Part shown: piece by piece, positions 7,210 through 62,338 of the stretch
How positions within the stretch are numbered: position 1 is the first letter of the stretch
Layout of the letters: the number at the start of each line of letters is the position of its first letter
NCBI GenBank assembly: GCA_043803385.1
Contig: JAZDKA010000041.1
Location: 19,799-83,798, forward strand
DNA length: 64,000 nucleotides
Direction: 5' to 3'
Source: Patescibacteria group bacterium
Lineage (GTDB): Bacteria > Patescibacteriota > Minisyncoccia > Moranbacterales > JAKLHP01
Made by a program: the position numbers and the translations under genes
Notes under the pieces: generated by a model
Told to the model about the DNA's origin: nothing
Databases searched by the model: none
What the model saw: the letters and a program-made list of their open reading frames with translations, nothing else

Positions 7210-7302
7210 CTACGAATTACGAATTTTATACAAATATACGAATGTACTAATATTTTTTAATTCGTATATTGGTATATTTGTACTTGATTAGTAATTCGTA
7301 GT
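7210..7302 (+). repeat. Family A MITE-like palindromic element (ctacgaattac...gtaattcgtag)
   Basis: Terminal inverted repeats ctacgaattac/gtaattcgtag with a nested inner palindrome tacaaatatacgaat/attcgtatatttgta. A near-identical reverse-complement copy is at 31114-31206. Confidence 0.8.
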
Positions 7303-7308
7303 CTATTT

Positions 7309-8121
7309 ATGTCTTTTAACTTTTTTCAAACAAAACTTTTCAAGGTGATTGCCGTATCTTCAATAGCATTTTTTTTCATAATTATAAATCCCTACAAGAT
7401 TTTTAATCCAGTTCGCTCGGTATTTTTAGTGATTTTTTCTCCAATTCAGAAAGTAGCTTATGGGCTGTCTTTTGAAATTAAACAAGTCAAAAATTTTCTT
7501 TCTTCCATAGGCCAGCTAAAAAACGAAAATGAAAAGCTTATAAAAGAAAACAGGGAACTTTTGTCTTTGAAAATAAGCCTTGAAGAAGCAGGAAGGGAAA
7601 ATGAAATTTTGCGCCGGGAACTAAAACTGCTTCCAATGGATAAATTTAATCTTGAAGGAGCTTCACTGGTAGGGAAAGATCCTCATGGAAAAGGCGATTG
7701 GATTGAGATTGACAAAGGGGGAAAGGATGGAATTGGCGAGGAAATGCCGGTTGTTGTCGGTTCAGGAATTTTAATAGGGAAAGTAAGCGAAGTTTTTCCG
7801 ACGACTTCGAAAATCGTCCTGCTTAGCAATCCAGGGAGCGCCATAAATGCCGTAGATTCGAAAACCGGTTCCAAGGGAGTAGTTCGAGGAGAATATGGCC
7901 TGGGAATAATAATGGATATGGTTCTCCAAAGCGAAGCCTTGAATCAAGGCGATGATGTGATTACTTCCGGAATAGGCAAGGAATTTCCCAGAGGACTCCT
8001 GATAGGAAAAGTGTCCGCGGTAAATCCTTCAGAAGATAGGCTTTTTCAAAAAGCGATAATTTCTTCTCCAGTGGATTTTAATAACTTGCAGTTCGTTTTT
8101 GTCGTTAAAAAAGGCATTTGA
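7309..8121 (+). CDS. mreC: Rod shape-determining protein MreC
   Basis: N-terminal TM segment, a coiled-coil region (ENEKLIKENRELLSLK), and a C-terminal beta domain. It sits between mreB and mreD. Confidence 0.75.
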   Translation: MSFNFFQTKLFKVIAVSSIAFFFIIINPYKIFNPVRSVFLVIFSPIQKVAYGLSFEIKQVKNFLSSIGQLKNENEKLIKENRELLSLKISLEEAGRENEILRRELKLLPMDKFNLEGASLVGKDPHGKGDWIEIDKGGKDGIGEEMPVVVGSGILIGKVSEVFPTTSKIVLLSNPGSAINAVDSKTGSKGVVRGEYGLGIIMDMVLQSEALNQGDDVITSGIGKEFPRGLLIGKVSAVNPSEDRLFQKAIISSPVDFNNLQFVFVVKKGI

Positions 8122-8130
8122 TAAAAAATA

Positions 8131-8682
8131 TTGCGGATGAGAAAAAAATTATTCATTTTTTTGGTTATCTTTTTAGCGGTTATTTTTCAAATAAGCGTTT
8201 TTCCGCTTTTCTTTTCAAGGAACAATATTCCCGATTTAGCACTGATTATCCTTGTTTCTTCTGTTGCCGTTCTCGGGTTTCAGCAGGTTTTGGTCTGGGC
8301 GGTAATTTCCGGATTTATTTTTGATATTTTTTCTTTTAGCAGGATAGGCGTGAACATTTTTTCTTTTGTACTGTTTTCTTACGCCATAAGTTTTTTTTCC
8401 CGAAGGATGATTTTGGGAGAAAAATCAGGGGGAATCCTTATGGGAGCCATCTTTGTTTCTTTCATGACTTTTTTCTACAGGCTATGGGCCATCTTTAATG
8501 AGTTAGGCCTTAATTTCCAAGAAATTTGGAAAATGAAAACAGAATTTTTGGAAGGAATGGGATGGAAAATTATTTTTAATCTCATCTTGTTTTTCCTTTC
8601 AATTTTATTTTTAAAAAGAATAAGGAACAAAATTTCTCCTAAAAATAATATTTACCCCTACACCAAAATTCCACCGTTATGA
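8131..8682 (+). CDS. mreD: Rod shape-determining protein MreD (polytopic membrane protein)
   Basis: A 183-aa multi-TM protein directly downstream of mreC. Its last ~10 codons are supplied by repeat family C. Confidence 0.6.
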   Translation: MRMRKKLFIFLVIFLAVIFQISVFPLFFSRNNIPDLALIILVSSVAVLGFQQVLVWAVISGFIFDIFSFSRIGVNIFSFVLFSYAISFFSRRMILGEKSGGILMGAIFVSFMTFFYRLWAIFNELGLNFQEIWKMKTEFLEGMGWKIIFNLILFFLSILFLKRIRNKISPKNNIYPYTKIPPL

Positions 8683-8757
8683 ATGCGTGGATGAATAAAT
8701 AGATGACACTGAATGTATTAATCCGATATCATGGCATAAGCCATTGGTGTGGGGTTA
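8652..8757 (+). repeat. Family C palindromic element copy C1 (acccctacacc ... ggtgtggggtt)
   Basis: Inverted repeats flank ~80 nt. The element spans the mreD 3' end and the mreD-mrdA spacer. Confidence 0.7.
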
Positions 8758-8771
8758 AACTGGCAAAATAA

Positions 8772-10658
8772 ATGTTCAAGAATAGCAAAACTAAAGCAAG
8801 GGCATCCAGAGGGATAGAGCTTGAAGACTATCTTTTTTCCGTTTCAAAAGAAGAATCGGCCAGGATTGAATTCCCGCTGGAAAAAAAGAAATTAGGAATA
8901 TTCTGGGCTATTATCGTAATATTCCTGGCAATTTTGGGAGGAAGAATTTTTTATCTTAATATTGTTAAAGGAAATTATTACAGGGAACTTGCTAATGGAA
9001 ACAGCATCAGGTCGGTTCCGATAAAAGCGCCCAGAGGGAAGATAATGGATCGCTTCGGGAATGTTCTGGTTAATAACGTTCCCAGCGTTGACGCGGTTGC
9101 CATACCTGCCGACCTCCCCAAAAATCCCGATGATATTAAAAAAATATCAGCTGATGTTTCAAAAATACTTTCGATCAGCGAGGAAGATTTTATTTCCAAA
9201 ATTACTTCAGCAGGCATGTCATCGCTTAATCCTATTCTGATAAAAGAAAATATTTCCCAGGATGAATATCTGTCTCTTGAGGAAAGAAGGCCGGATTTTC
9301 CCGGAGTAATGACTGAAAAAACAGCTATCCGCGAATATCCGGACAGCTCGATCTTTTCTCATATTCTCGGGTATGTCGGAAAAATAGACAAAAAAGAGCT
9401 GGAGGGAAGCGGCGGATATCTGCTTACCGATTATATCGGCAAGCAGGGAGTTGAAAAAACATACGAAAAATATCTGAAAGGAAAAAATGGCGCGGTCAAG
9501 GTCGAAGTTGATTCTATGGGAAAAATGAAACAAGAACGAGGAATTATTTCTCCTGAAGCCGGAAATGATTTAGTTTTGGGAATTGACTACGAACTCCAAA
9601 AAAAGATTTATGACGATTTGACCGACATGCTTTCAAAAACAAATACCAGGACTGCCGCAGCGGTGGCAATTGATCCAAAAAATGGAGAAGTGAGAGCGCT
9701 GATAAGCCTTCCGAGCTTTGACAATAATTTGTTTTCCGGAAAAATTTCTCAAGAGGATTATTCGAGATTGATTACTGATCCTGATAAGCCGTTGTTTAAC
9801 AGGGCTATTTCAGGCGAATATCCTCCCGGTTCGACTATTAAGCCATTGATCGCGTCGGCTGCTCTTTCGGAAGGAACGATTACTTCCGATACAACGGTAA
9901 ACGATAGCTCTGGCGCAATAAATATTGGAAGTTATCGTTTTGGGGATTGGAAAATCCACGGAGTGGTGAATATTAGAAAAGCCATAGCGGAAAGTTGCGA
10001 TGTGTTCTTTTATTCGGTAGGAGGAGGTTACGGAGATATAAAAGGTTTAGGAATGGATAGGATGGCGAAATATGAAAATATGTTTGGTTTGGGAAATATT
10101 ATAGGAATTGACATTCCGAGCGAGTCTAGCGGTTTTATCCCTAATACTGCCTGGAAATTGGATAAACTTGGAGAAAAATGGTATCTGGGAGATGATTATC
10201 ATGCGGCAATCGGCCAGGGTTTTTTAACAGCCACTCCGCTTCAAATAGTCAATTATATTGCGGCTATATCCAATGGAGGAACTTTATACCAGCCGAGAGT
10301 AGTATCTAAAATTGTTGATGAGGAAGGAAAAACTATCAATAATTCATCAGTTGCAATAAGAGATAAATTTATTTCTCCCGATATTTTGAAAATTGTGCAG
10401 GAAGGAATGAGAGAAGCAGTCGTTTCCGGATCAGCAAGGTCGCTAAACGATCTTCTAGTCCACGTGGCCGGAAAAACAGGAACATCCCAGTTTGGCAGTG
10501 AAAATAAAACCCATGCCTGGTTTGTTTCCTACGCGCCTTATGAAAATCCAGAACTCGCCATGATAATCCTGGTTGAAGGTGGGGGAGAGGGAAGCTCCAG
10601 CGCCGTTCCGGTGACAAGAGATGTTTACCAATGGTATTTTGGAGAAAGGAATAAATAA
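8772..10658 (+). CDS. mrdA: Penicillin-binding protein 2 (peptidoglycan D,D-transpeptidase)
   Basis: N-terminal TM segment, then SxxK (GSTIKP), SxN-like SCD and KTG (AGKTGT) motifs. Length 628 aa, following mreBCD. Confidence 0.85.
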   Translation: MFKNSKTKARASRGIELEDYLFSVSKEESARIEFPLEKKKLGIFWAIIVIFLAILGGRIFYLNIVKGNYYRELANGNSIRSVPIKAPRGKIMDRFGNVLVNNVPSVDAVAIPADLPKNPDDIKKISADVSKILSISEEDFISKITSAGMSSLNPILIKENISQDEYLSLEERRPDFPGVMTEKTAIREYPDSSIFSHILGYVGKIDKKELEGSGGYLLTDYIGKQGVEKTYEKYLKGKNGAVKVEVDSMGKMKQERGIISPEAGNDLVLGIDYELQKKIYDDLTDMLSKTNTRTAAAVAIDPKNGEVRALISLPSFDNNLFSGKISQEDYSRLITDPDKPLFNRAISGEYPPGSTIKPLIASAALSEGTITSDTTVNDSSGAINIGSYRFGDWKIHGVVNIRKAIAESCDVFFYSVGGGYGDIKGLGMDRMAKYENMFGLGNIIGIDIPSESSGFIPNTAWKLDKLGEKWYLGDDYHAAIGQGFLTATPLQIVNYIAAISNGGTLYQPRVVSKIVDEEGKTINNSSVAIRDKFISPDILKIVQEGMREAVVSGSARSLNDLLVHVAGKTGTSQFGSENKTHAWFVSYAPYENPELAMIILVEGGGEGSSSAVPVTRDVYQWYFGERNK

Positions 10659-10661
10659 TAA

Positions 10662-10688
10662 TTAGCAATCTTGACATCCGAGTGCTAA
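10662..10688 (+). promoter_or_regulatory. CIRCE (HrcA operator) inverted repeat upstream of groES
   Basis: TTAGCAATC-N9-GAGTGCTAA has one mismatch to the consensus TTAGCACTC-N9-GAGTGCTAA. Confidence 0.8.
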
Positions 10689-10699
10689 TAAGCTAAAAT
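10671..10699 (+). promoter_or_regulatory. Sigma70-type promoter for groES (-35 TTGACA, 17-nt spacer, -10 TAAAAT)
   Basis: TTGACA at 10671-10676 and TAAAAT at 10694-10699. The promoter overlaps CIRCE. Confidence 0.65.
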
Positions 10700-10731
10700 A
10701 AAAAAGCTAATAATTAATTTTTTAGTAGAAT

Positions 10732-11007: not shown

Positions 11008-11025
11008 AATTTTTAAGCGTTTTTA

Positions 11026-11068
11026 AAAGCCGAGCTTTAGGATTTTCCTAAAGCTCGGCTTGGTTTAT
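11026..11068 (+). terminator. Rho-independent terminator after groES
   Basis: 15-bp stem aagccgagctttagg/cctaaagctcggctt, followed by a T-rich tract. Confidence 0.75.
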
Positions 11069-11148
11069 AATTAAAAATAAAAAAACAGGGCAACACATTT
11101 ATGTGCGCCCCTTCGAACTTTCGAAATTTTGGTCAATCTCCTATTGAC

Positions 11149-11691: not shown

Positions 11692-11761
11692 TTTGAATCC
11701 TCCTTTTTGGCTTTATTGAACAACATAATAAGATAACACTCCTAGCGCTAGCTGTCAATAT

Positions 11762-12358: not shown

Positions 12359-12406
12359 ACTTTAAATATTTGTATATTTGTAATTAATTTGTAATTCGTA
12401 GAAGTT

Positions 12407-13204: not shown

Positions 13205-14157
13205 TTTAATTTGCTTCCAATAAAGTTAGGATATCCATTGATAAAATCTTTTATCAAAACCAGTTTTTTGCCTTCAACTTGAACTTCTTCCATAATAATA
13301 GCTCCTTTGGATGCTTTCACACCAACGCTATCATTTATTTTTATGACTTCTCCGATTTGGCAGTTATTTTCAACATCTTTTTCCCATAGCTTTATTTTAG
13401 TAAGTTTTATTCTTATTATTATTTTTTCATTTCCCCAGACAGAAAAAATTCCCGGCCAAGAATAAAAAGCCCGATATTTATTATATATATCCTGCGCTTC
13501 TGAATCCCAAAAAATATGCCCGTCTTCTCTTTCGATAAGCTGGCAATAAGTGGCTTTTGAATTGTCTTGTTTTTGAGGCTTGATTTTTTTTTCTGTCCAG
13601 AGCGGAATAGTTTCTAAAAGCAGATAAGAACTAAGTTTTGCCAATTTTTCCGAAAGAGTTTCCGTAGTATCGTCCTCACTCATTTTTATGCTTTTTTGTG
13701 CGAGAATATCGCCATGGTCCATTTTTTCATCAACGAGCATTATCGTTGTTCCCGTTTCTTTTTCTCCGGCAAGTATCGCGTTTTGAATAGGCGATGGGCC
13801 ACGGAATTCTGGAAGAAGCGAGGGGTGGACATTTATGCTTTTGAATTTAGGATATTCAATAATTTCCTTCGGGATTATTTTTCCATACGCCGCAACAATT
13901 ATAAGATCCGGATGGGATCCTTTTATTTGAGAAATTACTTTCTCCGTTAATTTTTCCGGCTGAAGAAAAGGAATTTTTTGGGCTCTAGCTATTTCTTTTA
14001 TGGGGCTGGAAATTATCTTTCTTTCTCGTCCTGATTTTTTGTCAGGCTGGGTAACAACTCCCAAAATTTTATATTTATCCTCAATTAAAGAAGCCAGAAT
14101 TTCTTTGGCAAAATAGGAAGTGCCCATAAAGAGTATTTTTATATTTTCTTTTTCCAT
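13201..14157 (-). CDS. fmt: Methionyl-tRNA formyltransferase
   Basis: MGTSYFA... HPSLLPEFRGPSPIQNAIL. Length 318 aa; overlaps def as in the canonical def-fmt operon. Confidence 0.85.
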   Translation of the reverse strand: MEKENIKILFMGTSYFAKEILASLIEDKYKILGVVTQPDKKSGRERKIISSPIKEIARAQKIPFLQPEKLTEKVISQIKGSHPDLIIVAAYGKIIPKEIIEYPKFKSINVHPSLLPEFRGPSPIQNAILAGEKETGTTIMLVDEKMDHGDILAQKSIKMSEDDTTETLSEKLAKLSSYLLLETIPLWTEKKIKPQKQDNSKATYCQLIEREDGHIFWDSEAQDIYNKYRAFYSWPGIFSVWGNEKIIIRIKLTKIKLWEKDVENNCQIGEVIKINDSVGVKASKGAIIMEEVQVEGKKLVLIKDFINGYPNFIGSKLK

Positions 14158-17458: not shown

Positions 17459-17530
17459 CCAAATCGCAACAAAACTTAAATTATATGCTATAGCATTAAA
17501 TTTAAGTTTTGTTGCGGAGTTAATGAATAG

Positions 17531-24572: not shown

Positions 24573-24629
24573 ATTTTTAAAATTTTTAAAAACTTAAATT
24601 TTATGCCATAGCAATGAATTTAAGTTTTG

Positions 24630-25019
24630 TTATCTTGTTAAATCTTTTAATTTTATTGAATACAAAGTTTTCTTTATCTGTTCCTGAAGTTTTGTCCAGA
24701 CGATACTGGAGGCGCAAGAACATTTGGCGTCGCATTTTCCGCTGGCGCATTCCATCGGCACGATTGGTCCTTCAAGAATTTCGATAATTTCTCCAACTTT
24801 AATATTTTTCGGATTCTGGGAAAGCGTATATCCGCCCTCTCTCCCCTTCTGGCTGGATACCAGTTTATTTTTTTTCAAAGCTCTGAATAATTGTTCCAAA
24901 TACTTCAAGGATATCCCCTCTTCTTTGGAGATTTCCTGGAGACTTTTTTGATTGGGATAATTTTTCGCCAGATTAACTGTAGCGCGAAGCCCGTATCCAG
25001 CGCGGGTAGAAAAACGCAT
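24630..25019 (-). CDS. iscR: Rrf2 family transcriptional regulator (IscR-like)
   Basis: N-terminal wHTH (MRFSTRAGYGLRA...) and a C-terminal Cys cluster (CASGKCDAKCSC). It sits upstream of iscS-iscU. Confidence 0.75.
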   Translation of the reverse strand: MRFSTRAGYGLRATVNLAKNYPNQKSLQEISKEEGISLKYLEQLFRALKKNKLVSSQKGREGGYTLSQNPKNIKVGEIIEILEGPIVPMECASGKCDAKCSCASSIVWTKLQEQIKKTLYSIKLKDLTR

Positions 25020-25613: not shown

Positions 25614-25784
25614 TCCCAGCACCAATTCCGAGATAGTCTTTAATAAATTTGATAGTTTATTCTTGGAATCGCCTCGCCTGAGGCAGGCTTGGCTTTAGCT
25701 GGTTATGGTATGAAATTCACATTGCGAATTAGTGCGGGATGCTCAATTTTATAGCTACTCGCTCTGCTCGCAGACAAAATTGGC
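25614..25784 (-). repeat. Family B MITE-like element copy B1, abutting the start codon of the PD-(D/E)XK nuclease gene
   Basis: TIRs atcccagcaccaattcc / gaattagtgcgggatgc and the conserved core aggcgattcc. It ends ...cgcagacaaaattggc-ATG. Confidence 0.75.
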
Positions 25785-26900
25785 ATGCGAATCTCTTATT
25801 CCGCTCTGGAAACTTACAAAACCTGTCCTCTGAAGTACAAATTTCAGGAAATTGACAGGATAAAGACTCCCAAATCCAAGGAGGCAGTTTTTGGTACGAT
25901 TTTGCATTCCACGCTTAATTTTATCCATACTCCGAGCATGCTTTCCCCCACTTTGGAGCAGGCGCTGGATTATTTTTCCCGCAATTGGAATAGTGATGTT
26001 TTTGAGAATGAATTAGAAGAAAGATCAGCATTTTCCCAAGGAGTTTCAATGATTCAGGATTATTACAAAAAAAATGATCCGACAAAAACAAATGTAGTTG
26101 ATTTAGAAAGCAGATTTACAATAGAACTAGGCGACCATATCGTTTCCGGAATTATTGACCGGATCGATAAGACCGAAGATGGCTATGAAATCGTTGACTA
26201 TAAGACGACCAAAAAAATGCCTTCTCAAAATAAGGTTGATAATGATTTGCAATTATCCATTTATCTCCAGGCGTTTCTTAAAAGATATCCTAAGGAAATC
26301 GAAAACATTGATAAAATAAAAGTAAGTTTGTATTATCTCAAGCATGGAGTGAAGCTTACTTCCACTAGAACAGTTGATCAGCTCAAAAAAATCGATGATT
26401 TATTTTTGGATGTTATCAAGCAGATCGAAGAAGGAAAATTTGACGCGCAAATTAATCCCCTTTGCGACTGGTGCGGATACCAGAATGCCTGTCCGATGTG
26501 GAAACACAAGTTCAAGGAAAAGAGAAAAATTGACACGGAAGAGGTGAATAAAATTATTGCCGAGTACATTGCCAGTAAATCCCAAATCACAACTCTCAAA
26601 TCACAACTCTTGAATCTGGAAGATAAAATCTCGGAATATATGGATCAAGAAAGCGTGGAAAGAGTTTTTGGAGAAAACGGAATTATTGCCAGGACATTGC
26701 GAAAAACTTATAAATACGATGAAAAAAAGATTAGGGAAATACTCGAACCACTCGACAAATGGGAAGATGTTTTGAAAGTCGACGGAATCGCGCTCAAAAA
26801 TATATTAGCCGTCTTGCCTTTTAACGCCAAAAAAGAAATTGAAAAAGCGAAAGTGGTGGATAAGGAAAGCAAGAGCTTTAGCGTGAAAAAATCAAGTTAA
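25785..26900 (+). CDS. PD-(D/E)XK nuclease superfamily protein (Cas4/AddB-like, C-terminal 3-4 Cys cluster)
   Basis: N-terminal SYSALETYKTCPLKYKF, ...IDRID...YEIVDYKT (D..E.K motif), and C-terminal CDWCGYQNACPMW. Confidence 0.7.
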   Translation: MRISYSALETYKTCPLKYKFQEIDRIKTPKSKEAVFGTILHSTLNFIHTPSMLSPTLEQALDYFSRNWNSDVFENELEERSAFSQGVSMIQDYYKKNDPTKTNVVDLESRFTIELGDHIVSGIIDRIDKTEDGYEIVDYKTTKKMPSQNKVDNDLQLSIYLQAFLKRYPKEIENIDKIKVSLYYLKHGVKLTSTRTVDQLKKIDDLFLDVIKQIEEGKFDAQINPLCDWCGYQNACPMWKHKFKEKRKIDTEEVNKIIAEYIASKSQITTLKSQLLNLEDKISEYMDQESVERVFGENGIIARTLRKTYKYDEKKIREILEPLDKWEDVLKVDGIALKNILAVLPFNAKKEIEKAKVVDKESKSFSVKKSS

Positions 26901-26905
26901 TGATA

Positions 26906-27016
26906 AATTACCAATTTCCAATGTCAAATCAATATCAAAAACCAAAATCCAAATTTTTTGACATTTAGTCATTTAGGCTTGATTGGAAATTTGACATTTG
27001 ATATTTGGATTTTCAG
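26906..27016 (+). repeat. Family D palindromic element copy D1
   Basis: attaccaatttccaa...ttgacatttagtcatttaggcttgattggaaatttgacatttg. A reverse-complement copy lies at 29708-29790. Confidence 0.7.
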
Positions 27017-29707: not shown

Positions 29708-29790
29708 TTAATTTCAAAATCCAAATGACAAATTTCCAATCAAGCCCAAATGACTAAATGTCAACTATTTGGAAATTGGTAATTTGAAAT
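29708..29790 (-). repeat. Family D palindromic element copy D2
   Basis: Reverse complement of D1 but lacking D1's ~35-nt internal segment. Confidence 0.7.
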
Positions 29791-30488
29791 TATTTAATGA
29801 TCGTTCCTTTAAACTTCTTCCCATCCATATAATTTCCCAGATTCATTAAATCTCGGCCGTTCATAATTGCCACCTCGATATTTTCTTCCTGGGCGATTTT
29901 GGAAGCAATTGGGTCGAAGGGCGCGTTCATCCCGGGATCCCACTTATCCCCCACTATTTTTCGGAAATCTTTCCAGGAAATTTTTTCTATTTTCTTAGCA
30001 TCGGGAAATTTTCGGGGATCCTTAGTGTAAACGTAATCAATATTGGATAGATTAACCACTCGCTTGATATCCATATATTTTGCCAGAATTACCGCGTCGT
30101 AATCAGAAGAAAAGCCCGGTCTCCAGCCAGCTCCAATTAAAATAGATTCTTTGAAGTTATAGAAATCTTCCAGATCGTGAGGATTGGTATTTATTCTTGG
30201 ATGGGCATAATTTCTGAAAATTGTTCTTAGAAAATGTCCATTCATTCTGGTCGCGTGAATTCCCAACCAATCTTTGTCATCATTGGTGACAGAGCTATCG
30301 CCTACCTTGACTGAAGCCTCGATATATTTTCTGGCTGTTTTTCCTCCTCCGGTAATTAAGATAAATTTATAACCTTTTTTGATGTAGCCAACAATTAATT
30401 TCTTGAAGTTTTTTACAAATTGAGCATCGATTTCATCGGGAACGATGAGCGATCCTCCAAGAGAGATTACGATGGTTTTTTTTGCCAT
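29790..30488 (-). CDS. pyrH: UMP kinase (amino-acid kinase family)
   Basis: Start taken at MAKKTIVISLGGSL. Has ITGGGKTARKYI and ILIGAGWRPGFSSDYDA...YTKDPRKFPDAKK. Confidence 0.75.
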   Translation of the reverse strand: MAKKTIVISLGGSLIVPDEIDAQFVKNFKKLIVGYIKKGYKFILITGGGKTARKYIEASVKVGDSSVTNDDKDWLGIHATRMNGHFLRTIFRNYAHPRINTNPHDLEDFYNFKESILIGAGWRPGFSSDYDAVILAKYMDIKRVVNLSNIDYVYTKDPRKFPDAKKIEKISWKDFRKIVGDKWDPGMNAPFDPIASKIAQEENIEVAIMNGRDLMNLGNYMDGKKFKGTIIK

Positions 30489-30655
30489 TTTTGTCTGCGA
30501 GGTACGAGCAGCTACAAAAATGAGCATCCCGCACCAATTCTATTAGTTAACTTTTTATTATTTAAAATTAAGCCGCACTTGCCTAAAGTAAGGCGATTCC
30601 GTGAATAAAACTATAAATTTACTCAAGGATATATTCGGAATTGGTGCGGGAAGGC
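30489..30655 (-). repeat. Family B MITE-like element copy B2, filling the whole HIT-pyrH spacer
   Basis: TIRs gagcatcccgcaccaattc / gaattggtgcgggaag and the core aggcgattccgtgaataaaa. It ends ...cgcagacaaaa-ATG. Confidence 0.8.
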
Positions 30656-31105
30656 TTACTTGTTTAATTTAATTATTCTAGCGATTTTTTGGAGTTCTTT
30701 TATATCGGCTTGCTGACCTAATTGAGTTGTCAAATAGCCTTGATATTTTTTCAAAAATACTTTTTCTTTTGCCCAAACTGCTTTAAATTCCGGTCCGACG
30801 CCATGAAGTGGATATAATTTTATATGCGCGTGATTAACTCCCATTCCTTCCATTACTATTGCTACCCTGTTCACTTTTAATCCTTTCTTGAGGAGCTTAG
30901 CCACTTTCTTGGCGGCCAGAAAAAAATCTTTGTAAATTTTGTCATCCATCTCAATCGCATCAGAATCGTAATGCTTTTTCAGCATCACCAGCGCCATTCC
31001 CTTGGTATTGGGAAACGCATCTAAAATGGCGAGAAAATTTTTGTCTTCCCAGATTTTTACTGATGGAATTTCTCCTTTGATAATTTTACAAAAAATACAA
31101 GACAT
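30656..31105 (-). CDS. HIT family (histidine triad) protein
   Basis: CIFCKII...; the histidine motif is GVNHAHIKLYP. Confidence 0.85.
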   Translation of the reverse strand: MSCIFCKIIKGEIPSVKIWEDKNFLAILDAFPNTKGMALVMLKKHYDSDAIEMDDKIYKDFFLAAKKVAKLLKKGLKVNRVAIVMEGMGVNHAHIKLYPLHGVGPEFKAVWAKEKVFLKKYQGYLTTQLGQQADIKELQKIARIIKLNK

Positions 31106-31113
31106 AAATACTG

Positions 31114-31206
31114 ACTACGAATTACTAATCAAGTACAAATATACCAATATACGAATTAAAAAATATTAGTACATTCGTATATTTGTATTAAATTCGTAGT
31201 TCGTAG
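31114..31206 (-). repeat. Family A MITE-like palindromic element, reverse-complement copy
   Basis: >90% identical to the reverse complement of 7210-7302. Confidence 0.8.
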
Positions 31207-31656: not shown

Positions 31657-31687
31657 AATTGATTTTTCTCGCTATATTTATGAAGTT

Positions 31688-31734
31688 AAATCACTAATCA
31701 ACGCGAATTAACTCTCGAATGCTCACGAATAGTC
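31688..31734 (+). repeat. Family G short repeat (aaatcactaatcNacgcNaattaactNtcgaat..tcacgaata)
   Basis: A second copy is at 38688-38735. Confidence 0.55.
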
Positions 31735-31794
31735 TAAAAATTATTAGTGATAATTTGTGATTAAAATTAGAGTAGATTCGCGATTTATATCATT

Positions 31795-35849: not shown

Positions 35850-35941
35850 TTCTAACCGATTCGAAATTACGAAAAATTATGCGAATCTGCAAAATTTTTG
35901 TTCGTAGATTCGCATTCAATTCGTAGTTTCGCATCGGGTCT
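35850..35941. repeat. Degenerate family A-related repeat (tacgaa/ttcgtag motifs)
   Basis: cgaaattacgaa...ttcgtagattcgcat...aattcgtag. Confidence 0.45.
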
Positions 35942-36739
35942 TTATAATAATTTCTTCTTGGCTATATTTTTTAATTCCTCATTGAATTCAGCGATTGCTT
36001 TTTCAATGAGCGGATCGAATTTTTTGTAAATTTCTTTTTTCTTGACAATATTCCCCGCTTCAAGAAGCGAATCGAATGTTCCGGCATCCAGCCATTCGCC
36101 TTTCACAATGCCTACTTCCAGCTCGCCTTTTTCCAAATAATAATTATGGAGAGAGGTAATTTCTATTTCTCCCCTATCGGAAGGCTTTACTTCTTTAGCT
36201 ACTTTCAAAACCTGATTGTCATAAATATAAAGTCCGGGAATGGCATAATCACTTATCCATTCTTTTGGTTTTTCTACTATTTTAATGGCTTTATTATTTT
36301 CATCGAATTTCACAACGCCGGATCTTTCCGGATCATTCACCTTTTTGGCGAATATTTTTCCTCCAGACTTAAAATTCTTAATATCCTCGGAAAAATCATC
36401 TTCAAAAATATTATCTCCCAGGATCATTGTTACGTTGTCATTGTCAATAAAATTTTCTCCGACAATAAAAGCGTCAGCCAAACCTCTCGGAGTTTTTTGC
36501 ACTTCAAAAAACAAATCGATGCCGTAATTTTTAAAAATTGATCCCAGAAGATTAAGGAATTGCCCGCTGTGTTCCGGCGCGACAATGACTAAAATTTCTT
36601 TAATCCCGGCTTTAATTAAGGTATTCAACGGATAGAAAATCATCTGCCGATCATAAACCGGTAAAAGCTGCTTGGATGTCGTAGCGGTGAGAGGGAGTAA
36701 ACGCGTGGCTGTCCCTCCGGCGAGAATAATGCCTTTCAT
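35942..36739 (-). CDS. rmlA: Glucose-1-phosphate thymidylyltransferase-like nucleotidyltransferase
   Basis: MKGIILAGGTATRLLPLT..SKQLLPVYD..MIFYPL. Confidence 0.75.
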   Translation of the reverse strand: MKGIILAGGTATRLLPLTATTSKQLLPVYDRQMIFYPLNTLIKAGIKEILVIVAPEHSGQFLNLLGSIFKNYGIDLFFEVQKTPRGLADAFIVGENFIDNDNVTMILGDNIFEDDFSEDIKNFKSGGKIFAKKVNDPERSGVVKFDENNKAIKIVEKPKEWISDYAIPGLYIYDNQVLKVAKEVKPSDRGEIEITSLHNYYLEKGELEVGIVKGEWLDAGTFDSLLEAGNIVKKKEIYKKFDPLIEKAIAEFNEELKNIAKKKLL

Positions 36740-36912
36740 GCAATTTTTATCTGCGAGCGTAGCGAGCAGCTATAAAAATTAGCATCCCGCACCAATTCGC
36801 AGTTTATATTTTAATTTTTTTGAAATTTGAGCCGCAGCCTGCCTCAGGCGAGGCGATTCCGTGAATAAAATTATAAATTACCCGTAGCTTTATTCGGAAT
36901 TGGTGCTGGACA
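36740..36912 (-). repeat. Family B MITE-like element copy B3 (its right TIR supplies the last codons and stop of rmlD)
   Basis: ttagcatcccgcaccaattc ... gcctgcctcaggcgaggcgattccgtgaataaaa ... cggaattggtgctgg. Confidence 0.8.
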
Positions 36913-37825
36913 AGTATTCCTTTAATGCTTCTTTCCAGCTTCGAAGTGGGTTTAGTTTGGTATTTATCAAAACTGAAATTTCCGGTCTTTTGGCTGGCCT
37001 TTTGAGGTCTTTCGAAGCTATCGGAATAACTTTAGTTTTGACTTTCTTTAACTTATATAATTCTAACGCGGCTTGGTGCCATGTGCAAGCGCCGGAATTG
37101 GTAACGTGATAAATTCCAAAAGGTTTTTTGGCTTCAACTATTTCTTTAGTTTTTCGCGCCAAATCCGGCGCGTAAGTATAGCAGCTTATTTCATCGTTAA
37201 CTATTTTTACAGATTTATTTTTTCCCCCTAATTCTAGCATTACATCAAAAAAACTTTTTTTTGCTCCTTCGGCTTTGGCAGGTTTTCCGAATAATTTTGA
37301 AGTTCGGATAATATAATACTTCTTAGTGTTCTTTTGAACTTCTATTTCTCCCAAAAGTTTTGTTTTTCCGTATTTATTTATTGGTTTCGGCTTGTCGCTT
37401 TCCTTAAATCCTATTTCCGGCTGAAAATTAGCGTGAAGCATGCAGGAATGACAAGAATGAGCGCATCCCTCCGGCTCTTCTATTTTTGGCTTTCCGTCAA
37501 AAACATAATCAGTTGAATAATGAATGAACATTGCTCCGATTTTTTTGGCGATTTTAGCGAGATATCCTAGAGCCAATCCGTTTATTTTTTTGGCAATTTC
37601 AAACTCTTTTTTTTCTTCGCATTTATCCACAGCATTGTAAGCGGCGGAATTGATAATAATTTTAGGATTTATCACTTTAATTTTTTTGTGAACGGCCACT
37701 TCATTGGCAATATCCAAATCATCTTTGTCCCAAGCGATAACTTTGTAATCCTTATCAGACTTAAAGACAGAAACCAATTCCTGTCCCAGCATTCCTTTCG
37801 CGCCGATTATTAGTATCTTTGCCAT
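36890..37825 (-). CDS. rmlD: dTDP-4-dehydrorhamnose reductase
   Basis: Start taken at MAKILIIGAKGMLGQEL (Rossmann fold). Has YGKTKLLGE (YxxxK). The ORF-track N-terminal extension MVRDAH... is read-through into repeat B4. Confidence 0.75.
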   Translation of the reverse strand: MAKILIIGAKGMLGQELVSVFKSDKDYKVIAWDKDDLDIANEVAVHKKIKVINPKIIINSAAYNAVDKCEEKKEFEIAKKINGLALGYLAKIAKKIGAMFIHYSTDYVFDGKPKIEEPEGCAHSCHSCMLHANFQPEIGFKESDKPKPINKYGKTKLLGEIEVQKNTKKYYIIRTSKLFGKPAKAEGAKKSFFDVMLELGGKNKSVKIVNDEISCYTYAPDLARKTKEIVEAKKPFGIYHVTNSGACTWHQAALELYKLKKVKTKVIPIASKDLKRPAKRPEISVLINTKLNPLRSWKEALKEYLSSTNSE

Positions 37826-37984
37826 TTTTATCTTCGAGTGAAACGAGAAGCTATAAAAATGAGCATCCCGCACCAATTCTTTAAATTAAACTTTTTTATT
37901 ATTTGAGATTAAGCTGCAGGCGATTCCGCGGATATAGATTTTTAATATTGCATATATCTATATTCGGAATTTGGTGCGGGATTT
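37826..37984 (-). repeat. Family B MITE-like element copy B4
   Basis: gagcatcccgcaccaattc ... aggcgattccgcggata ... cggaatttggtgcggga. Confidence 0.8.
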
Positions 37985-37986
37985 CA

Positions 37987-38694
37987 TTATTCATTTATTA
38001 TTTTTTCTAAATATTCTTTAATTTTCAATTGCTCTTCGAATGAATTTTCCAGTTCAATGCTGATAATATCAGGCATATATTTCAGGTATTTTTTGATGTA
38101 GTTTAATTCTTTTAAATCATTCAGAGTGTGGATATCATATGATGGCTCACAATAAGTATATGGAAATAATTCTTTTGATACTCCAGATATATGGCAACAG
38201 CCAATCGGATATTTTTGTATTAGTTTCTCAAAATCAGCGTATTTTTTATTGTTCTTTTTAATTCCATTTTCCCAATGCGAGAAATCAATGCATAATCCAT
38301 TTCCCAGTGATGATATTTCATCTGAAATTGGCACAAAATCCGTATTTTCTAAATAAATTATATTTTTGTATTTAGAATAATCATAATTTACAGGAAATTC
38401 TTTGGGGGAATGAATATTGAAAACCGCTGTCTTAAATTTACTTACGAAATAATTTAATTCATCAACCGGCATATCATCTGGTCTTAAGTGCACATGCGGG
38501 ATTGATTCAATGCCGGTTTTTTCGAGTAAATTATATAGTTCTTTTCTTTCCTCGTTTTTTAAAAAAGTTGGAAAAAGAGCAAGTTCTTTAATATTAAATT
38601 TATCTATTTCTTTGATTTTTTCTCTCCAGTCCGATCCGGGAGTGGTCGTTAGCCCTAATAAAATTTTCTTTTGAGGCATAATAATATAAATCAC
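37987..38694 (-). CDS. Hypothetical protein inside the rml cluster
   Basis: A 235-aa ORF with no recognisable motif. Confidence 0.45.
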   Translation of the reverse strand: MIYIIMPQKKILLGLTTTPGSDWREKIKEIDKFNIKELALFPTFLKNEERKELYNLLEKTGIESIPHVHLRPDDMPVDELNYFVSKFKTAVFNIHSPKEFPVNYDYSKYKNIIYLENTDFVPISDEISSLGNGLCIDFSHWENGIKKNNKKYADFEKLIQKYPIGCCHISGVSKELFPYTYCEPSYDIHTLNDLKELNYIKKYLKYMPDIISIELENSFEEQLKIKEYLEKIINE

Positions 38695-38735
38695 TAATCT
38701 ACGCTAATTAACTTTCGAATTATCACGAATAATTT
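38688..38735 (+). repeat. Family G short repeat copy 2, followed by a perfect 14-bp palindrome ttattcagtatact/agtatactgaataa
   Basis: aaatcactaatctacgctaattaactttcgaattatcacgaataat. Confidence 0.55.
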
Positions 38736-38764
38736 ATTCAGTATACTAGTATACTGAATAAACA

Positions 38765-43088: not shown

Positions 43089-43239
43089 AAAACCGATGCG
43101 AATCTACGAATTAAATGCGAATCTACGAAATGTATGAATCGCGAAGTTGACTTAGTAATCTAGCAAAGATGAGTTATATTGTCAATGTTTTTAGGCTTCA
43201 ATAATATTCGGATAGTTTTAATTTATAAATTTCATAAAT

Positions 43240-43284
43240 CAGACAATTACTTTGATACTTTCGAGTATCAAAGTAATTGTCTGA
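43240..43284. repeat. Perfect 20-bp-stem hairpin (cagacaattactttgatact-ttcg-agtatcaaagtaattgtctg)
   Basis: Seen directly in sequence. Tetraloop ttcg. Confidence 0.8.
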
Positions 43285-43625
43285 TAGTGATAAAATAGAT
43301 TTGAAAGGTTAGCTTAGGATAAATTAAAATTTCGTGGAGTATGCATAAATTAAAAGCGGGTAGTGCTCGATGGCTCTACCCGCGGTATTTCTATGACTTT
43401 CACCTCTCGTTTGAAAGGATTTTTTTCGAGTTTAAGTTTTGAATCTTTGAATTTTGATAAAAATCTAAACTAACTGCAATACTTTCTGCCCACGGATGTG
43501 GAATAGATTGTATATCAGACCTCCTAAGGGAGAATCTAGTGCATGCTTGAAAACTCCAAGGAGTATTTCAAGATATCACCTACCAAGGTAGAGTGATATT
43601 AAGCTAGAAGAACTTAAGATATTGG

Positions 43626-43660
43626 GGAATCCAGACTGTTTTCAATCTGGACTCCCCCTT
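43626..43660. terminator. Hairpin ggggaatccagact...atctggactcccc + T-run, at the junction with the foreign-like island
   Basis: On the plus strand it is followed by tttctgttt. It lies immediately 3' of the minus-strand gene 43666-44664. Confidence 0.5.
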
Positions 43661-43665
43661 TCTGT

Positions 43666-46492: not shown

Positions 46493-46575
46493 GTTCTGTC
46501 AACCCCGCACTAACTTTTTGCTGGCGTAGCCGATTTAGCGCTTTGCGCTTGCAAAAAGTTAGTGCGGGGCAAGTC
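46493..46575. repeat. Family E long-stem hairpin repeat (tgtcaaCCCCGCACTAACTTT...AAAGTTAGTGCGGGGcaag), copy 1; likely bidirectional terminator
   Basis: A 19-bp stem, T-rich on both sides. It is 3' of the sortase gene. Copy 2 is at 55381-55466. Confidence 0.75.
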
Positions 46576-50017: not shown

Positions 50018-50137
50018 ATACCGGAAATTACTAATTTCTAATTATTCTAATTTCTAATCAAATCCCAATTACTAAATTTTCTAATTTAAAAAATTAGAAA
50101 TTAGGTTAATTAGGTCAATTAGAAATTTTATTTTATT

Positions 50138-51765: not shown

Positions 51766-52810
51766 TTAAAATAATACTGATGCATCTCCCTGGGAGTTGT
51801 TTATTATTTCCTTTTCGAAATTTTTCATTGGTTCATCTTTGAAATCAACGGTTTCTTCTTCTTTGTTCCAGGAATAATCTTTGGAAAATACCATGATTTT
51901 CATTTTTTTCATTTCTTCGTAAAGAAATTCTCCGAAAGTTTTTTTGGGCAGAAAAATCTGCCTTATTCTTATAAGTTCGGAATCATTTTCTGTTTTTTTG
52001 TCTTCCACTTCAATAATATGGAATCCAAGGGAGCTTTCAATAATGTCGCTTATTTTCCCCTTGTCTGAAGCAAAGACTGCCTTCGATACTTCTTCAATGA
52101 GCTGGTCTTTTTTGAACCACCCAAGCTCTCCCCCATCTTGGGCAGTTGATCCTTTTGAATATTCCATGGCGACATCGGCAAAAACTTTCTTCTTATTGAG
52201 TTCGGCTTTTGCTTTTTCTATTTGTTCTTTTCCTTTCTTGACCGAACTATCTCTGGATGCAAATATTTTTTCAAGCTCCTGGCGGTATAGATCCGGTTTC
52301 ACGACTTTTTCCTTAAAATCATCAATTGACCAGCCGTATAGTTTTTCCAGGTTATTATTCAAATTATCTCCCGTTCCGTATTCTTCCATTTTTCTGCTTA
52401 AATTTTGGCTGACCATCGCATCCGTTATCTTCATACCTTCTTTTCGGGCTAAAATTTCAATCGCTTTGTCTTCGATCATTCTTTCGAGTACTTCTTTCTC
52501 TTTCATCTTCAGCCTTTTTTTTCCATTTTCAGTGGAAAAATCCACCCGCAAATCAACTTTCGAAAAATCCTGGTTTTCATAAAATTTCTTCACTGATTCA
52601 AGATTGTTATTGAGATTTTTAAATGTGATAAAATTATAATTATTCAAAACCGCAACCGGATATGGGATTATTTTTTCCATTTTTTTAACAGCCTTATAAT
52701 CTTTTCCAAATCCGTAAATAAGAATGCCAAAAACAACGATAATAGCTACAGCTACTATCAAACTAGAGTAAACAATAGTTGATATTTTTACTTCATTATC
52801 TTTTGCCATA
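51766..52810 (-). CDS. PpiC-type (parvulin) peptidyl-prolyl cis-trans isomerase, SurA/PrsA-like
   Basis: Start taken at MAKDNEV. N-terminal TM segment. The parvulin domain carries GGELGWFKKDQL...GFHIIEV. Confidence 0.75.
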
Positions 52811-52952
52811 ATTGTCTTTGAGCGTAGCGAGAAGCTACAATTATGAGCATCCCGCATCAATTTTTTAACTGATATTTATATTTATCCAGGTAAGCCGTAG
52901 GCGATTCCGTGGATAAAACTAGCTTTTGTTTTAAATTTTATTCGAAATTGAT
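52811..52952 (-). repeat. Family B MITE-like element copy B5
   Basis: gagcatcccgcatcaattt ... aggcgattccgtggataaaa ... gaaattgattgcggga. The TIRs show co-varying substitutions. Confidence 0.75.
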
Positions 52953-55380: not shown

Positions 55381-55466
55381 CTGTCAACCCCGCACTAACT
55401 TTATACTGATTATTACAGGCTTTTAGCACCAAAGGTGCTGGTATAAAGTTAGTGCGGGGTCAAGCA
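55381..55466. repeat. Family E long-stem hairpin repeat copy 2 (3' of lepA)
   Basis: ctgtcaaccccgcactaacttt...aaagttagtgcggggtcaag, with a nested inner hairpin agcacc-aaa-ggtgct. Confidence 0.75.
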
Positions 55467-57398: not shown

Positions 57399-57425
57399 GT
57401 GGTGTAAACTTATGCTTTTGTAGTG

Positions 57426-58988: not shown

Positions 58989-59036
58989 GATCTCTCCTCT
59001 TCCTTTTATAGTTTATTTTCGGCTTCGCGCCGAGTT

Positions 59037-60368: not shown

Positions 60369-60530
60369 AATAACCTCCTTATGTCCTTAAGATTAAAGGC
60401 CGAAAAGCCTTTTTGAAACAAATCTATATTGTCAAAGGACCAAAAAACCAAGCAAAAACTTGGTCCTCCTCGATAATTTAAAGATAGCAAATGTTGATAA
60501 AAAAGCAAGGAATTTTTATAGCTGTATCGT

Positions 60531-60564
60531 ATAACATATTCCGTCGGTTGACGGAATATGTTAT
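60531..60564. promoter_or_regulatory. 15-bp-stem perfect palindrome ataacatattccgtc-ggtt-gacggaatatgttat upstream of purB (candidate operator)
   Basis: Seen in sequence. No adjacent T-run, so it is not a canonical terminator. Confidence 0.35.
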
Positions 60565-60650
60565 AAAAAAATCTTTACTTATTGCTAATCGGCATTAAAT
60601 GAAGAATAAAATATTTAGATAATTTTGATTTTTGCACTTTGCATTTTCTA

Positions 60651-62294
60651 TTACATTCCGTCCGTTTCCTCGGTGATTTCAGAGATCGGCTCCTTAACTC
60701 TGAAAAGTTTTCTGGAAATTGAGTTTTTGAAGTGGAAAAATTCTTCGACTTTAAAAACCCAGCTCATAAAAAGAAATACGATAATTCCCATTCCTCCGGA
60801 AATGACAAGTTGTGAAAAAATTCCGATAAAGGTGTCGATGTTGGCAACTCTATTTATCGCGTATTTTAGCATCTGGGTAATAAATCCGGCAATAATCGCA
60901 GCCAAAAGTATTCTCGAGATTGAATTCAAGATATGTTTTTCATCCAAATTACCTATCTTTTTTCGAAGTATCGCAAAAAGGAGCGCCATATTAATTATGC
61001 TGGCTGCTGAAAAAGCAATTGCCAGTCCTGATACGGCGTAATTCTTTATTAAGATTATCACTAAAATAATATTTACCGCTTCGCTGGCGAGCGCTACATA
61101 AAAAGGAGTTTTGGTATTATGAATAGCATAAAAAGCTCTGGCCAGAAGCGGGATGAGGCACTGGGCAAACAAGCTCGCGGTGAGGAATCCCAAAGTTTCA
61201 AAAGTAAGTACTGTATCTTCCCAATTAAATTGTCCTGCTCCCAAAATAACACGCACAAGCTGGGCTCTTAGCAACAGCATCAGGATGCTTAATGGAATAA
61301 TAAAAAACAATATCCTTCGAAAAACTTTGGAAAAATTTTGTATGAATTCATCATTCATTCCTTTTGCATAAGCGGCGCTTAGGGTCGGAAAAACCGCTAC
61401 GGCAAAAGAAACTCCAAAAAGGCCCAGCGGGAAGCTCTGGATATTATTGGCAAAATTAAAAATCGCCAGGCTTCCTGAAGCCAAAGTGGAAGCAAAAATA
61501 GTTATCACCAGAAAATTTACCTGGCTTACCGCGATTCCCATCGTCCTGGGAATCATTAATCGCGCTATTCTTCTGATATTTTCATTTCTGAAAACTCCGA
61601 AGAGAACGGGCTTGAATTTAAAACCGGAGAATTTGACTGCCGGATACTGGATAAGCATATGCATAAAAGCTCCGAGAACTACTCCGACAGCCAGTCCTGC
61701 GGGTCCCATAAGCTTTACAAAAAACAGAGCCCCGATAATTATTCCGACATTATACATTATCGGCGCGATGGAATAGATGAGAAAATTTTTGAGTGAAACT
61801 AAAACCCCGCCAAAAATAGCGCTGATTCCCAAAAATACGGGACTTAGAAACATTATCCGCGTAAGCGTTATTGCCAAATCTATTTTTTCCCCTGAAAATC
61901 CGGGAGTAATAAGGTGCATAATAAAAGGAGCAAATATCGCCAAGATTCCCGCTACGATAATCAAAGCAAGAATGATAATATTCATCATTCCGGAAACTAG
62001 CTCCCATGCCTCATCTTTTTTTTCATTAGAAACAAGACTAGTAAAAACAGGAATAAAAGCGGCGCTTAAAGCCCCGAGGATTAATAAGTTATATAATAGA
62101 TCCGGAATTCTGAATGCGGCATAATAAGCATCAAGAGTATCTCCGGCTCCAAACTGGGAAGCTAAAATTCTGTCTCGGAATAATCCCAAGAATCGGCTGG
62201 CAAAACCAGAAACGGCAATAATAAAAGCCGCAGCGGTAATTGACTCCGTGGGTTTGCCGTTGAATATTTTGTTATTAGTTAGTTTTTGTATCAT
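60651..62294 (-). CDS. murJ: Lipid II flippase MurJ/MviN
   Basis: A 547-aa protein with ~14 TM helices. N-terminus ...GFASRFLGLFRDRILASQFGAGDTLDAYYAAFRIPD is typical of MurJ. Confidence 0.85.
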   Translation of the reverse strand: MIQKLTNNKIFNGKPTESITAAAFIIAVSGFASRFLGLFRDRILASQFGAGDTLDAYYAAFRIPDLLYNLLILGALSAAFIPVFTSLVSNEKKDEAWELVSGMMNIIILALIIVAGILAIFAPFIMHLITPGFSGEKIDLAITLTRIMFLSPVFLGISAIFGGVLVSLKNFLIYSIAPIMYNVGIIIGALFFVKLMGPAGLAVGVVLGAFMHMLIQYPAVKFSGFKFKPVLFGVFRNENIRRIARLMIPRTMGIAVSQVNFLVITIFASTLASGSLAIFNFANNIQSFPLGLFGVSFAVAVFPTLSAAYAKGMNDEFIQNFSKVFRRILFFIIPLSILMLLLRAQLVRVILGAGQFNWEDTVLTFETLGFLTASLFAQCLIPLLARAFYAIHNTKTPFYVALASEAVNIILVIILIKNYAVSGLAIAFSAASIINMALLFAILRKKIGNLDEKHILNSISRILLAAIIAGFITQMLKYAINRVANIDTFIGIFSQLVISGGMGIIVFLFMSWVFKVEEFFHFKNSISRKLFRVKEPISEITEETDGM

Positions 62295-62338
62295 CTCTAC
62301 GAATTACGAATCTGTACAAATATACGAATGTACGAATT
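62295..62338. repeat. Partial family A repeat (tctacgaattacgaatctgtacaaatatacgaatgtacgaatt)
   Basis: Matches the left half of 7210-7302. Confidence 0.6.

Follow-up and report, generated by a model that had tools for sequence, protein, structure and literature searches.

The question raised by a 64,000-nucleotide stretch of a Patescibacteria group bacterium genome (contig JAZDKA010000041.1 of assembly GCA_043803385.1, positions 19,799 to 83,798 of the forward strand; hereafter the window) is what kind of element has placed two nearly identical palindromes, together with several looser relatives, in the short spacers between its genes. A first-pass annotation had named these repeats Family A and proposed that they were either miniature inverted-repeat transposable elements (MITEs) or attenuator or promoter hairpins. 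We found that Family A is built of inverted arrays of a seven-nucleotide unit, that it is present in some and absent from other orthologous spacers, that it leaves no target-site duplication, and that related arrays flank the gene for a small predicted nuclease, the GxxExxY protein. We consider it probable that Family A is the gene-less, non-autonomous miniature of a GxxExxY nuclease-bearing mobile cassette that is widespread in Patescibacteria.

Both full palindromes proved real, and their identity, first given as above 90 %, was refined to 98 % by alignment (91/93 positions). Copy 1 (7210-7301, + strand) lies in the spacer leading from mreB to mreC and comprises a left arm at 7210-7251, an 8-nt loop and a right arm at 7260-7301, whilst copy 2 (31115-31206, − strand) lies upstream of the HIT-family gene, in the spacer that follows a 147-aa ORF of unknown function. 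The arms of copy 1 scored 44.6 and 42.5 bits with an nhmmer arm profile, and those of copy 2 scored 45.9 and 43.3 bits. If transcribed, both copies can, according to the folding model, form an A/U-rich hairpin of about 40 bp (−38 kcal/mol, z −8.1 for copy 1; −32.4 kcal/mol, z −5.6 for copy 2), with 0/200 shuffles folding as well in either case. The core 23-mer was matched five times in the window at up to three mismatches (0 expected), and CTACGAATTAC seven times at up to one mismatch (0.76 expected). The left flanks of the two copies are unrelated, similarity ending at the left edge of the element, and on the right the likeness persists for just 14-16 nt and takes in the start codon that follows (TC..TATTTATGTCTT). 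This common right flank occupies 7302-7315 (+ strand), where it contains the mreC start codon at 7309, and 31099-31114 (− strand), where it contains the HIT gene start codon at 31105-31103. Because the left flanks are unrelated and the right likeness is so short, a segmental duplication, which had been named as a possible source of both copies, is ruled out.

The relatives first listed as partial copies fell into two groups, the first being genuine single arms of Family A and the second members of a sister dialect that includes one complete palindrome. The single arm at 62295-62338 (+ strand; 51.5 bits) makes up the whole spacer from a DUF4012 gene to murJ, and as its consensus reads on the + strand, its outer tip stands against the murJ start (...ATTCGTAGAG-ATG on the − strand). 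A degenerate arm at 12367-12403 (− strand; TACGAAT TACAAAT .. TACAAAT A TACAAAT; 24.2 bits, E 1e-5) sits between a rhodanese and an HD-domain gene, with its outer tip 3 nt past the upstream stop codon. Neither of these single arms folds. In the sister dialect, the complete palindrome (35850-35941, − strand; −33.6 kcal/mol, z −5.9) consists of GCGAAT/TACGAAT units and separates two nucleotidyl-transferase genes; the single arm at 43093-43139 (+ strand) is 95 % complementary to 35901-35937 and scored merely 9.3 bits with the Family A model. This arm abuts a glycosyltransferase start (43088), at the end of a 577-nt non-coding stretch (43089-43665) without an Rfam match. Upstream of it is a sigma-70-like site, TTGACA-17-TAGATT (43157-43185, − strand), from which the arm would be in the 5′ leader of the glycosyltransferase transcript. 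Across the window, the arm profile returned five strong arms (the two pairs and 62294-62338), the weaker 12367-12403 and a marginal 43104-43139. All window copies are intergenic and between same-strand genes, as the first-pass annotation had stated; its further statement that they are oriented with gene flow held for the two full copies and failed for the two single arms, which point in opposite directions. With about six sites per 64 kb, all of them intergenic, Family A does not reach the density of DNA uptake sequences (about 1 per kb, also inside genes).

The element had been described as terminal inverted repeats enclosing an inner palindrome. It is better described as two inverted arms separated by a loop of 4-42 nt, each arm being a repeat unit of about 45 nt that contains five heptads (TACNAAT-TACNAAT-N3-4-TACNAAT-N-TACNAAT-N-TACNAAT). 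An exact-pattern scan limited to one genome per species yielded 65 loci, about 35 of them in Patescibacteria (Moranbacteria/Moraniibacteriota, Parcubacteria and Paceibacterota metagenome-assembled genomes; MAGs). The consensus around the 19-mer, at bases unconstrained by the search, was (T)CTY-TACGAAT-TACGAAT-N3-4-TACAAAT-A-TACGAAT-G-TACGAAT. Conservation reaches 4 nt past the first heptad (TCTY, or RRGA read outward) and then falls to background. Within the window, TACNAAT occurs at 2.70 per kb in non-coding DNA vs 0.25 per kb in coding DNA, an 11-fold difference, and phased CNAAT arrays are found in spacers only.

Comparison of paired arms indicated that the heptad cores are conserved and the hairpin as such is not. 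Stem mismatches in 14 pairs oriented with gene flow comprised 26 G.U, 26 A.C and 95 transversions, and most of the transversions fall on the variable N of the heptad. Among 11 pairs parsed strictly, complementarity at the N positions and in the linker did not exceed chance (heptad 2 N, 0/11 vs 4.1 expected; linker, 0/11). With the cores conserved, and with neither a G.U/A.C bias nor covariation, the pattern argues for recognition by a protein over a selected RNA structure. Neither full copy carries the G+C-rich stem and T run of a Rho-independent terminator or attenuator, their stems being A/T-rich and about 40 bp long, and neither contains a sigma-70 promoter directed toward the downstream gene; inside them there are only weak antisense matches (TTAAAA-16-TATATT). 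Promoter-like sites totalled 2 in the copy 1 region (2.1 in shuffled sequence) and 6 in the copy 2 region (1.7 expected), where the sole site inside the element is again a weak antisense match. The whole window lacked any Rfam 15 match at gathering thresholds. The attenuator or promoter hairpin originally suggested was accordingly not borne out, there being no signal above shuffles, no terminator-type stem and T run, and no RNA-type bias among mismatches.

Outside the window, hundreds of further copies were found in other Patescibacteria genomes and metagenomes. A stricter gapped pattern was present in at least 120 metagenome contigs, and the 1.37 Mb of loci that we fetched (given below as L numbers) held 309 arm matches, made up of 73 pairs and 163 apparent single arms. 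None of these matches was inside a called ORF, the ORF calls being crude. Strong single arms were distributed over co-directional (71 %), convergent (16.5 %) and divergent (12.6 %) spacers, an occupancy that looks unselective, though no baseline spacer frequency is available for these loci. Single arms in co-directional spacers were oriented forward in 49 cases and in reverse in 24; for these, the median distance from outer tip to gene boundary was 3 nt (10 nt or less in 56/73), and the inner ends of single arms were separated from the other gene by a median of 54 nt. Among 305 distinct tips, 109 abutted starts (mode 5-10 nt) and 72 abutted stops (mode 4 nt). The same AAGA, GAGA and GGAG tips were common to the start-abutting and stop-abutting groups, indicating that the purine tip is part of the element. 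When the surroundings of single arms were searched for at least two inverted heptads within 90 nt, these were found on the inner side of 62/134 arms and on the outer side of 0/134, so that many single arms are pairs whose partner has decayed. A Shine-Dalgarno sequence is recognizable in only about a quarter of window genes, and the lack of one beside the element is therefore not special. The genes adjoining copies are functionally unrelated, and ORF clustering recovered mostly ribosomal-protein genes of orthologous operons. Family A arms were also seen on contigs binned as 'uncultured Bdellovibrionales' (L013 and L059), which may represent mis-binned Patescibacteria contigs or transfer. The 19-mer also had five matches on viral contigs; the one inspected (L069) is a tandem octamer array and was rejected as Family A.

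Gain and loss were apparent when orthologous spacers were compared between MAGs with 88-94 % identity in the flanking genes. The filled site at L028:1672-1777 corresponds to a 12-nt empty spacer in L033, that at L052:7699-7806 to a 20-nt empty spacer in L028, and the single arm at L052:6427 to an empty orthologous spacer in L028. Loop and linker sequences are common to copies at unrelated loci and in different genomes. As these sequences are neutral, their sharing indicates copying and not convergence and, with the 98 % identity of the window copies, it indicates that it is the gene-less form itself that multiplies. No locus that was compared shares DNA with the window, a pattern specific to the loop of the window copies had no match in metagenomes, and the MreC proteins of the nearest relatives are only 65-73 % identical to that of the window genome. 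In the nearest relative examined the mreB-mreC spacer is 48 nt long and without the element, and in a second relative it holds a different, 120-nt palindrome of TTCTAAT/TTGCAAT-type units (L068:9881-10000); this position is one that draws palindromes of several dialects.

The search for target-site duplications, which had been proposed as a check, found none above shuffled partners in 82 distinct pairs (offsets 0-6, lengths 2-8), and the filled and empty pairs L028/L033 and L052/L028 likewise displayed no duplication. No transposase gene was bounded by arms in the 1.37 Mb of loci. The MITE proposal thus survives in part: Family A has terminal inverted repeats, small size, no coding capacity and many dispersed copies, and is gained and lost at orthologous spacers as MITEs are, but it has neither a target-site duplication nor a transposase between its arms. 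A 326-aa transposase (PF00872, 22.9 bits) does lie within a Family A palindrome at L132:668-1757. It belongs to an IS256/Mutator-like insertion that has inverted ends of its own (GGGnAnnnGGAAATATTTCTGTTGATA) and a duplication of 8 bp (CGAATTTA), and having different ends this nested insertion was rejected as an autonomous Family A element. By comparison with the orthologous L033 copy, a 44-nt GC-rich hairpin (CCCGCCTCG...CGAGGCGGG) at L028:2342-2386 is positioned precisely within heptad 2 after TTA(C). It is found again in L062 near 3470-3510 and appears to be a very small mobile hairpin in its own right, with a TTAC-type target.

ORF clustering beside the elements revealed one recurring small protein, PF13366 PDDEXK_3, equivalent to TIGR04256 'GxxExxY protein'. 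A 128-aa GxxExxY gene was located exactly in the loop between Family A-type arms in L097 and L110 (rpsG-fusA spacer) and in L048, L164 and L043, and between arms of other dialects (GCTAAT, CTCTAAT and GCGGAT units) in L191, L062 and L192. To remove the selection bias of the motif, we also fetched GxxExxY homologues by protein sequence alone. Within this set, the Family A model matched L200 immediately to the two sides of the gene (28 and 38 bits) and nowhere else in 5.4 kb. TACTAAT/TACGAAA arms were present in L194 and L219 and CGCGAAT/CGCTAAT arms in L209, whilst in L204 and a Verrucomicrobia MAG (L207) the gene has next to it full palindromes built from CACGAAT or CGCGAAATA units. Three viral contigs (L212, L213 and L216) carried CGCAGAAAT, ACGGAATAA and CCGGTTCAT arrays at their GxxExxY genes. 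Annotated GxxExxY genes in RefSeq, on a Bacteroides finegoldii plasmid (NZ_OY725952.1, 15222-15596; L224) and a Bernardetia plasmid (L223), are situated between co-directional housekeeping genes with inverted arrays of CACAGAGGA-type 8-9-mers on both sides, showing that the cassette layout is present in cultured organisms. A flank inverted-complementarity score of at least 15 was reached by 9/14 homology-selected loci vs 4.9 % of 688 control genes. In L192 (4252-6510), arms and nuclease are in frame within lepA, generating a 752-aa open reading frame with an insertion of about 150 aa. The insertion comprises the GxxExxY domain and the translated GCGGAT-repeat arms and falls between the conserved ...VRMTY and LNLIDTPGH.

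Residues D72, E82 and K84 are invariant in the GxxExxY family, preserving an intact D..ExK motif. The closest structures to a predicted model of the protein (pLDDT 92) were Cas4, lambda exonuclease/MGME1, archaeal splicing endonucleases and Hjc, with TM-scores of only 0.4-0.58, and a profile of the family returned nothing significant against the sequences of solved structures. By this model, the GxxExxY protein is a minimal PD-(D/E)XK nuclease. A survey of the PD-(D/E)XK superfamily lists PF13366 as a family of unknown function with multiple transfers (PMC3424549).

In the reading that we favour, the full-length form of the element would be the GxxExxY gene of about 128 aa in the loop between two arms, and we infer that the heptads are binding sites for its nuclease, with several protomers per arm. 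Cleavage by the nuclease followed by host repair would copy the cassette into short intergenic spacers without duplication; excision of a structured intermediate would be an alternative route, also duplication-free. Gene-less deletion derivatives would be copied likewise, with the nuclease acting in trans, and the 14-16 nt of right flank common to the window copies would fit co-conversion. The window copies, which fill their spacers from stop codon to start codon, would then be passengers in operons and are probably tolerated by the host. Surviving insertions spare both the stop and the start codon and retain a purine-rich stretch, and with an outward purine tip 5-10 nt before the next start the downstream gene keeps a usable initiation region. 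The hairpin of about 40 bp in the operon transcript may plausibly serve as an RNase III or decay-barrier site, as a side effect and not a selected function.

Several observations weigh against this reading. The direction of the association might be the reverse, with the GxxExxY gene simply preferring palindrome loops as insertion sites, and the evidence on the protein covers its fold and catalytic motif. Mobility is read solely from presence/absence and copy similarity, there being neither a target-site duplication nor a defined excision product, and exact insertion junctions cannot be drawn because the whole spacer differs in filled and empty pairs. The window itself has no GxxExxY gene (six-frame hmmsearch, best E 1.2). 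Four loci with the gene (L215, L217, L218 and L221) are without clear paired arms, and that of Treponema (L222) has just an 11-bp inverted repeat. Most loci were picked by the motif itself, with crude ORF calls, and the unbiased sample is small (14-17 loci). The putative link to the nuclease is the most novel part of the picture. A conserved host protein that binds DNA or RNA would explain the conservation of the heptad cores across species equally well.

This last point leads to an alternative in which Family A is a host cis-regulatory array, its heptads binding a conserved ribbon-helix-helix-like or RNA-binding protein that controls transcription or translation of the adjacent gene, with copies arising through site turnover. 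Such an array would be consistent with cores that are conserved where base pairing is not, with a single consensus across many species, with tips bearing Shine-Dalgarno-like purines 5-10 nt from starts, and with the placement of the 43093-43139 arm in a 5′ leader downstream of a sigma-70-like site. We nevertheless regard it as rather improbable, as copies come and go at orthologous spacers of close MAGs and are absent from the mreB-mreC spacer of the nearest relative examined, identical tips stand at stop and start codons, neutral loops and linkers common to unrelated loci reflect copying, and the adjacent genes have unrelated functions. Spacer types also appear to be occupied unselectively and in both orientations, with the caveat on baseline frequency given above. 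Another alternative treats the palindromes as an autonomous repeat class and the GxxExxY genes as separate selfish ORFs that use their loops as safe havens. Other elements do enter palindromes, as seen for the IS256-like insertion in L132 and the 44-nt hairpin in L028, and gene-less copies far outnumber gene-bearing ones (73 pairs vs about 6). The placement of the gene between inverted arrays recurs, however, across phyla with different units (Bacteroides, Bernardetia, Verrucomicrobia), in the in-frame insertion into lepA the gene has moved together with its arms, and the sole arms in 5.4 kb of L200 are those flanking the gene, making this alternative unlikely in our view.

A classical MITE, in the sense of an insertion-sequence deletion derivative whose arms are recognized as terminal inverted repeats by a DDE transposase, would account for the small size of the element, its inverted terminal arms, its many dispersed copies and its presence or absence at orthologous sites. 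Transposases also typically bind repeated sub-terminal motifs, as at the ends of Tn7, Mu and hAT. Given 82 pairs without a target-site duplication, and 1.37 Mb of loci without a transposase between arms other than that of the nested element in L132, we see very little likelihood in this origin. Selection for the hairpin as a structured RNA, be it an RNase III site, a 3′-exonuclease barrier or an attenuator between cistrons, is suggested by the great stability of the hairpins and their location within operons. It is nonetheless a slim prospect, since G.U and A.C are equally frequent among mismatches, covariation is lacking at the variable positions, many copies consist of a single arm without a fold, and no T run follows the stem. 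A minor variant would relate Family A to repetitive extragenic palindromes (REPs) or bacterial interspersed mosaic elements (BIMEs) moved by a REP-associated tyrosine (RAYT; Y1) transposase. The termini GTAG/GTAA are as in REPs, and a relative of the window genome (L066; MreC 71 % identical) has a 212-aa Y1_Tnp-like (RAYT-like) gene at 13323-13961, immediately after the PBP2 gene, in the place taken by groES in the window. REPs, though, are by definition hairpins, which a single arm is not, and the 20-kb L066 locus contains no Family A copy. By tblastn, the Y1-like protein of L066 had no match in the window or the loci compared, and this lead was set aside, no homologue having been seen near any copy in them.

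Among known systems, the REP/BIME elements of proteobacteria and their RAYT genes share with the proposed GxxExxY cassette and with Family A the short intergenic palindromes often found in operons, the high copy number, the lack of target-site duplication, a small nuclease-type gene between inverted repeat copies and a repeat sequence that varies by lineage. They differ in that the gene here encodes a PD-(D/E)XK (GxxExxY) and not an HUH Y1 protein, the arm consensus is common to many species, and the arm consists of five direct heptads that remain unfolded when single (z about 0), whereas a REP is a hairpin with a 5′ GT[AG]G. Bacterial MITEs such as the Neisseria Correia elements, enterobacterial ERIC/IRU and pneumococcal RUP are similar in size (90-150 bp), have inverted ends and presence/absence polymorphism, and are co-transcribed with their neighbours and able to fold as RNA into long hairpins, with Correia transcripts serving as RNase III substrates. 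Family A differs from them in having no TA or other duplication, no DDE transposase partner, and ends of phased heptads. A small selfish ORF in a long inverted-repeat stem within a host transcription unit is also characteristic of ORF-bearing 23S rRNA intervening sequences and of free-standing or intron-borne homing endonuclease genes, and the nuclease fold is of the same superfamily as that of one such enzyme, the PD-(D/E)XK endonuclease I-Ssp6803I. The cassettes described here, in contrast, are mainly between protein genes (once in frame, in L192), lack intron or intein hallmarks, and have gene-less copies that multiply on their own. Rickettsia palindromic elements are palindromic repeats of reduced genomes that can be in frame within genes, comparable to the lepA insertion in L192, but they have no gene or heptad arrays, and the Family A copies of the window are all intergenic. 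Intergenic arrays of 7-nt units, direct and inverted, are also formed by the cyanobacterial STRR heptamers and the heptad operators of the omega repressor (pSM19035). TIGR-Tas arrays, which are tandem arrays of longer units with variable guide segments, were considered and rejected, as the units here are dispersed and differ at only 1 variable nt. The literature searched contained no description of this element, of any role for a GxxExxY protein, or of repeats or MITE-like elements in Patescibacteria. The layout of the GxxExxY cassette suggests an undescribed kind of mobile cassette.

Other repeats were present in the window, some of them with an architecture resembling Family A. The palindrome at 50018-50137 has the same build with TTCTAAT/ACCTAAT units (z −3.8) and is not Family A proper. 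Inverted arrays of CCAAT/CAAAT units occur at 26901-27007, again with the same build in another dialect, and a second copy of this array is found at 29718-29789. A 50-nt repeat with CGAAT-containing units (CACTAATCAACGCGAATTAACTCTCGAATGCTCACGAAT) occurs at 31687-31736 and 38687-38736 (86 % identical), possibly representing a further heptad-array dialect. A second dispersed family of about 150 nt, without an Rfam match, is located at 25616-25800 (+ strand) and at 30479-30655, 36737-36889, 37818-37986 and 52802-52927 (all − strand). It reads CCCGCACCAATTCCGAATA ... TTATTCACGGAATCGCC ... GAATTGGTGCGGGATGCTCA, followed by a hairpin, and is directly upstream of, and overlaps the called starts of, five unrelated genes, which encode a PDDEXK_1 nuclease, an amino-acid kinase, a nucleotidyl transferase, an RmlD-like reductase and a PPIase. 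The spacers at 1721-1841 and 3553-3721 have in common runs, 91-98 % identical, of three small hairpins whose loops are conserved (…ACTCCGACTGCAGGA…, …ACTCCGATCGGACG…); these may be a repeated leader or an RNA that binds protein. A 43-nt hairpin of perfect type, AAAACTTAAATT..AATTTAAGTTTT, occurs in inverted copies (88-91 %) in the spacers at 17468-17513 and 24589-24631. Finally, a long hairpin (CCCCGCACTAACTTT ... AAAGTTAGTGCGGGG) occurs in two copies at 46496-46569 and 55381-55459 (− strand), in each case adjoining a −35-like hexamer, TTGACAG, that lies upstream of a gene. The sole Rfam signal there, mir-208, was dismissed as a spurious match to the hairpin.

The data from beyond Patescibacteria allow a broader proposition, which we put forward tentatively and at somewhat less than even odds. 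GxxExxY proteins (PF13366/TIGR04256), a large orphan PD-(D/E)XK family across bacteria and viruses, may be the enzymes of an unrecognized class of mobile cassette that is bounded by inverted, lineage-specific arrays of 7-9-nt direct repeats and inserts without duplication in operon spacers, occasionally in frame in genes. Such cassettes would spawn gene-less palindromes, Family A among them, that form much of the intergenic DNA of Patescibacteria. In these tiny, gene-dense genomes, a sizeable share of the short spacers is occupied by a dynamic repeat. The repeat is found within conserved operons (mreBCD, str and those of ribosomal proteins), which has consequences for the assembly and binning of MAGs, the prediction of operons and promoters, and the typing of strains. 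Its physical link to GxxExxY genes provides a first testable function, that of a mobile-element nuclease, for a widespread family whose function is listed as unknown (PMC3424549).

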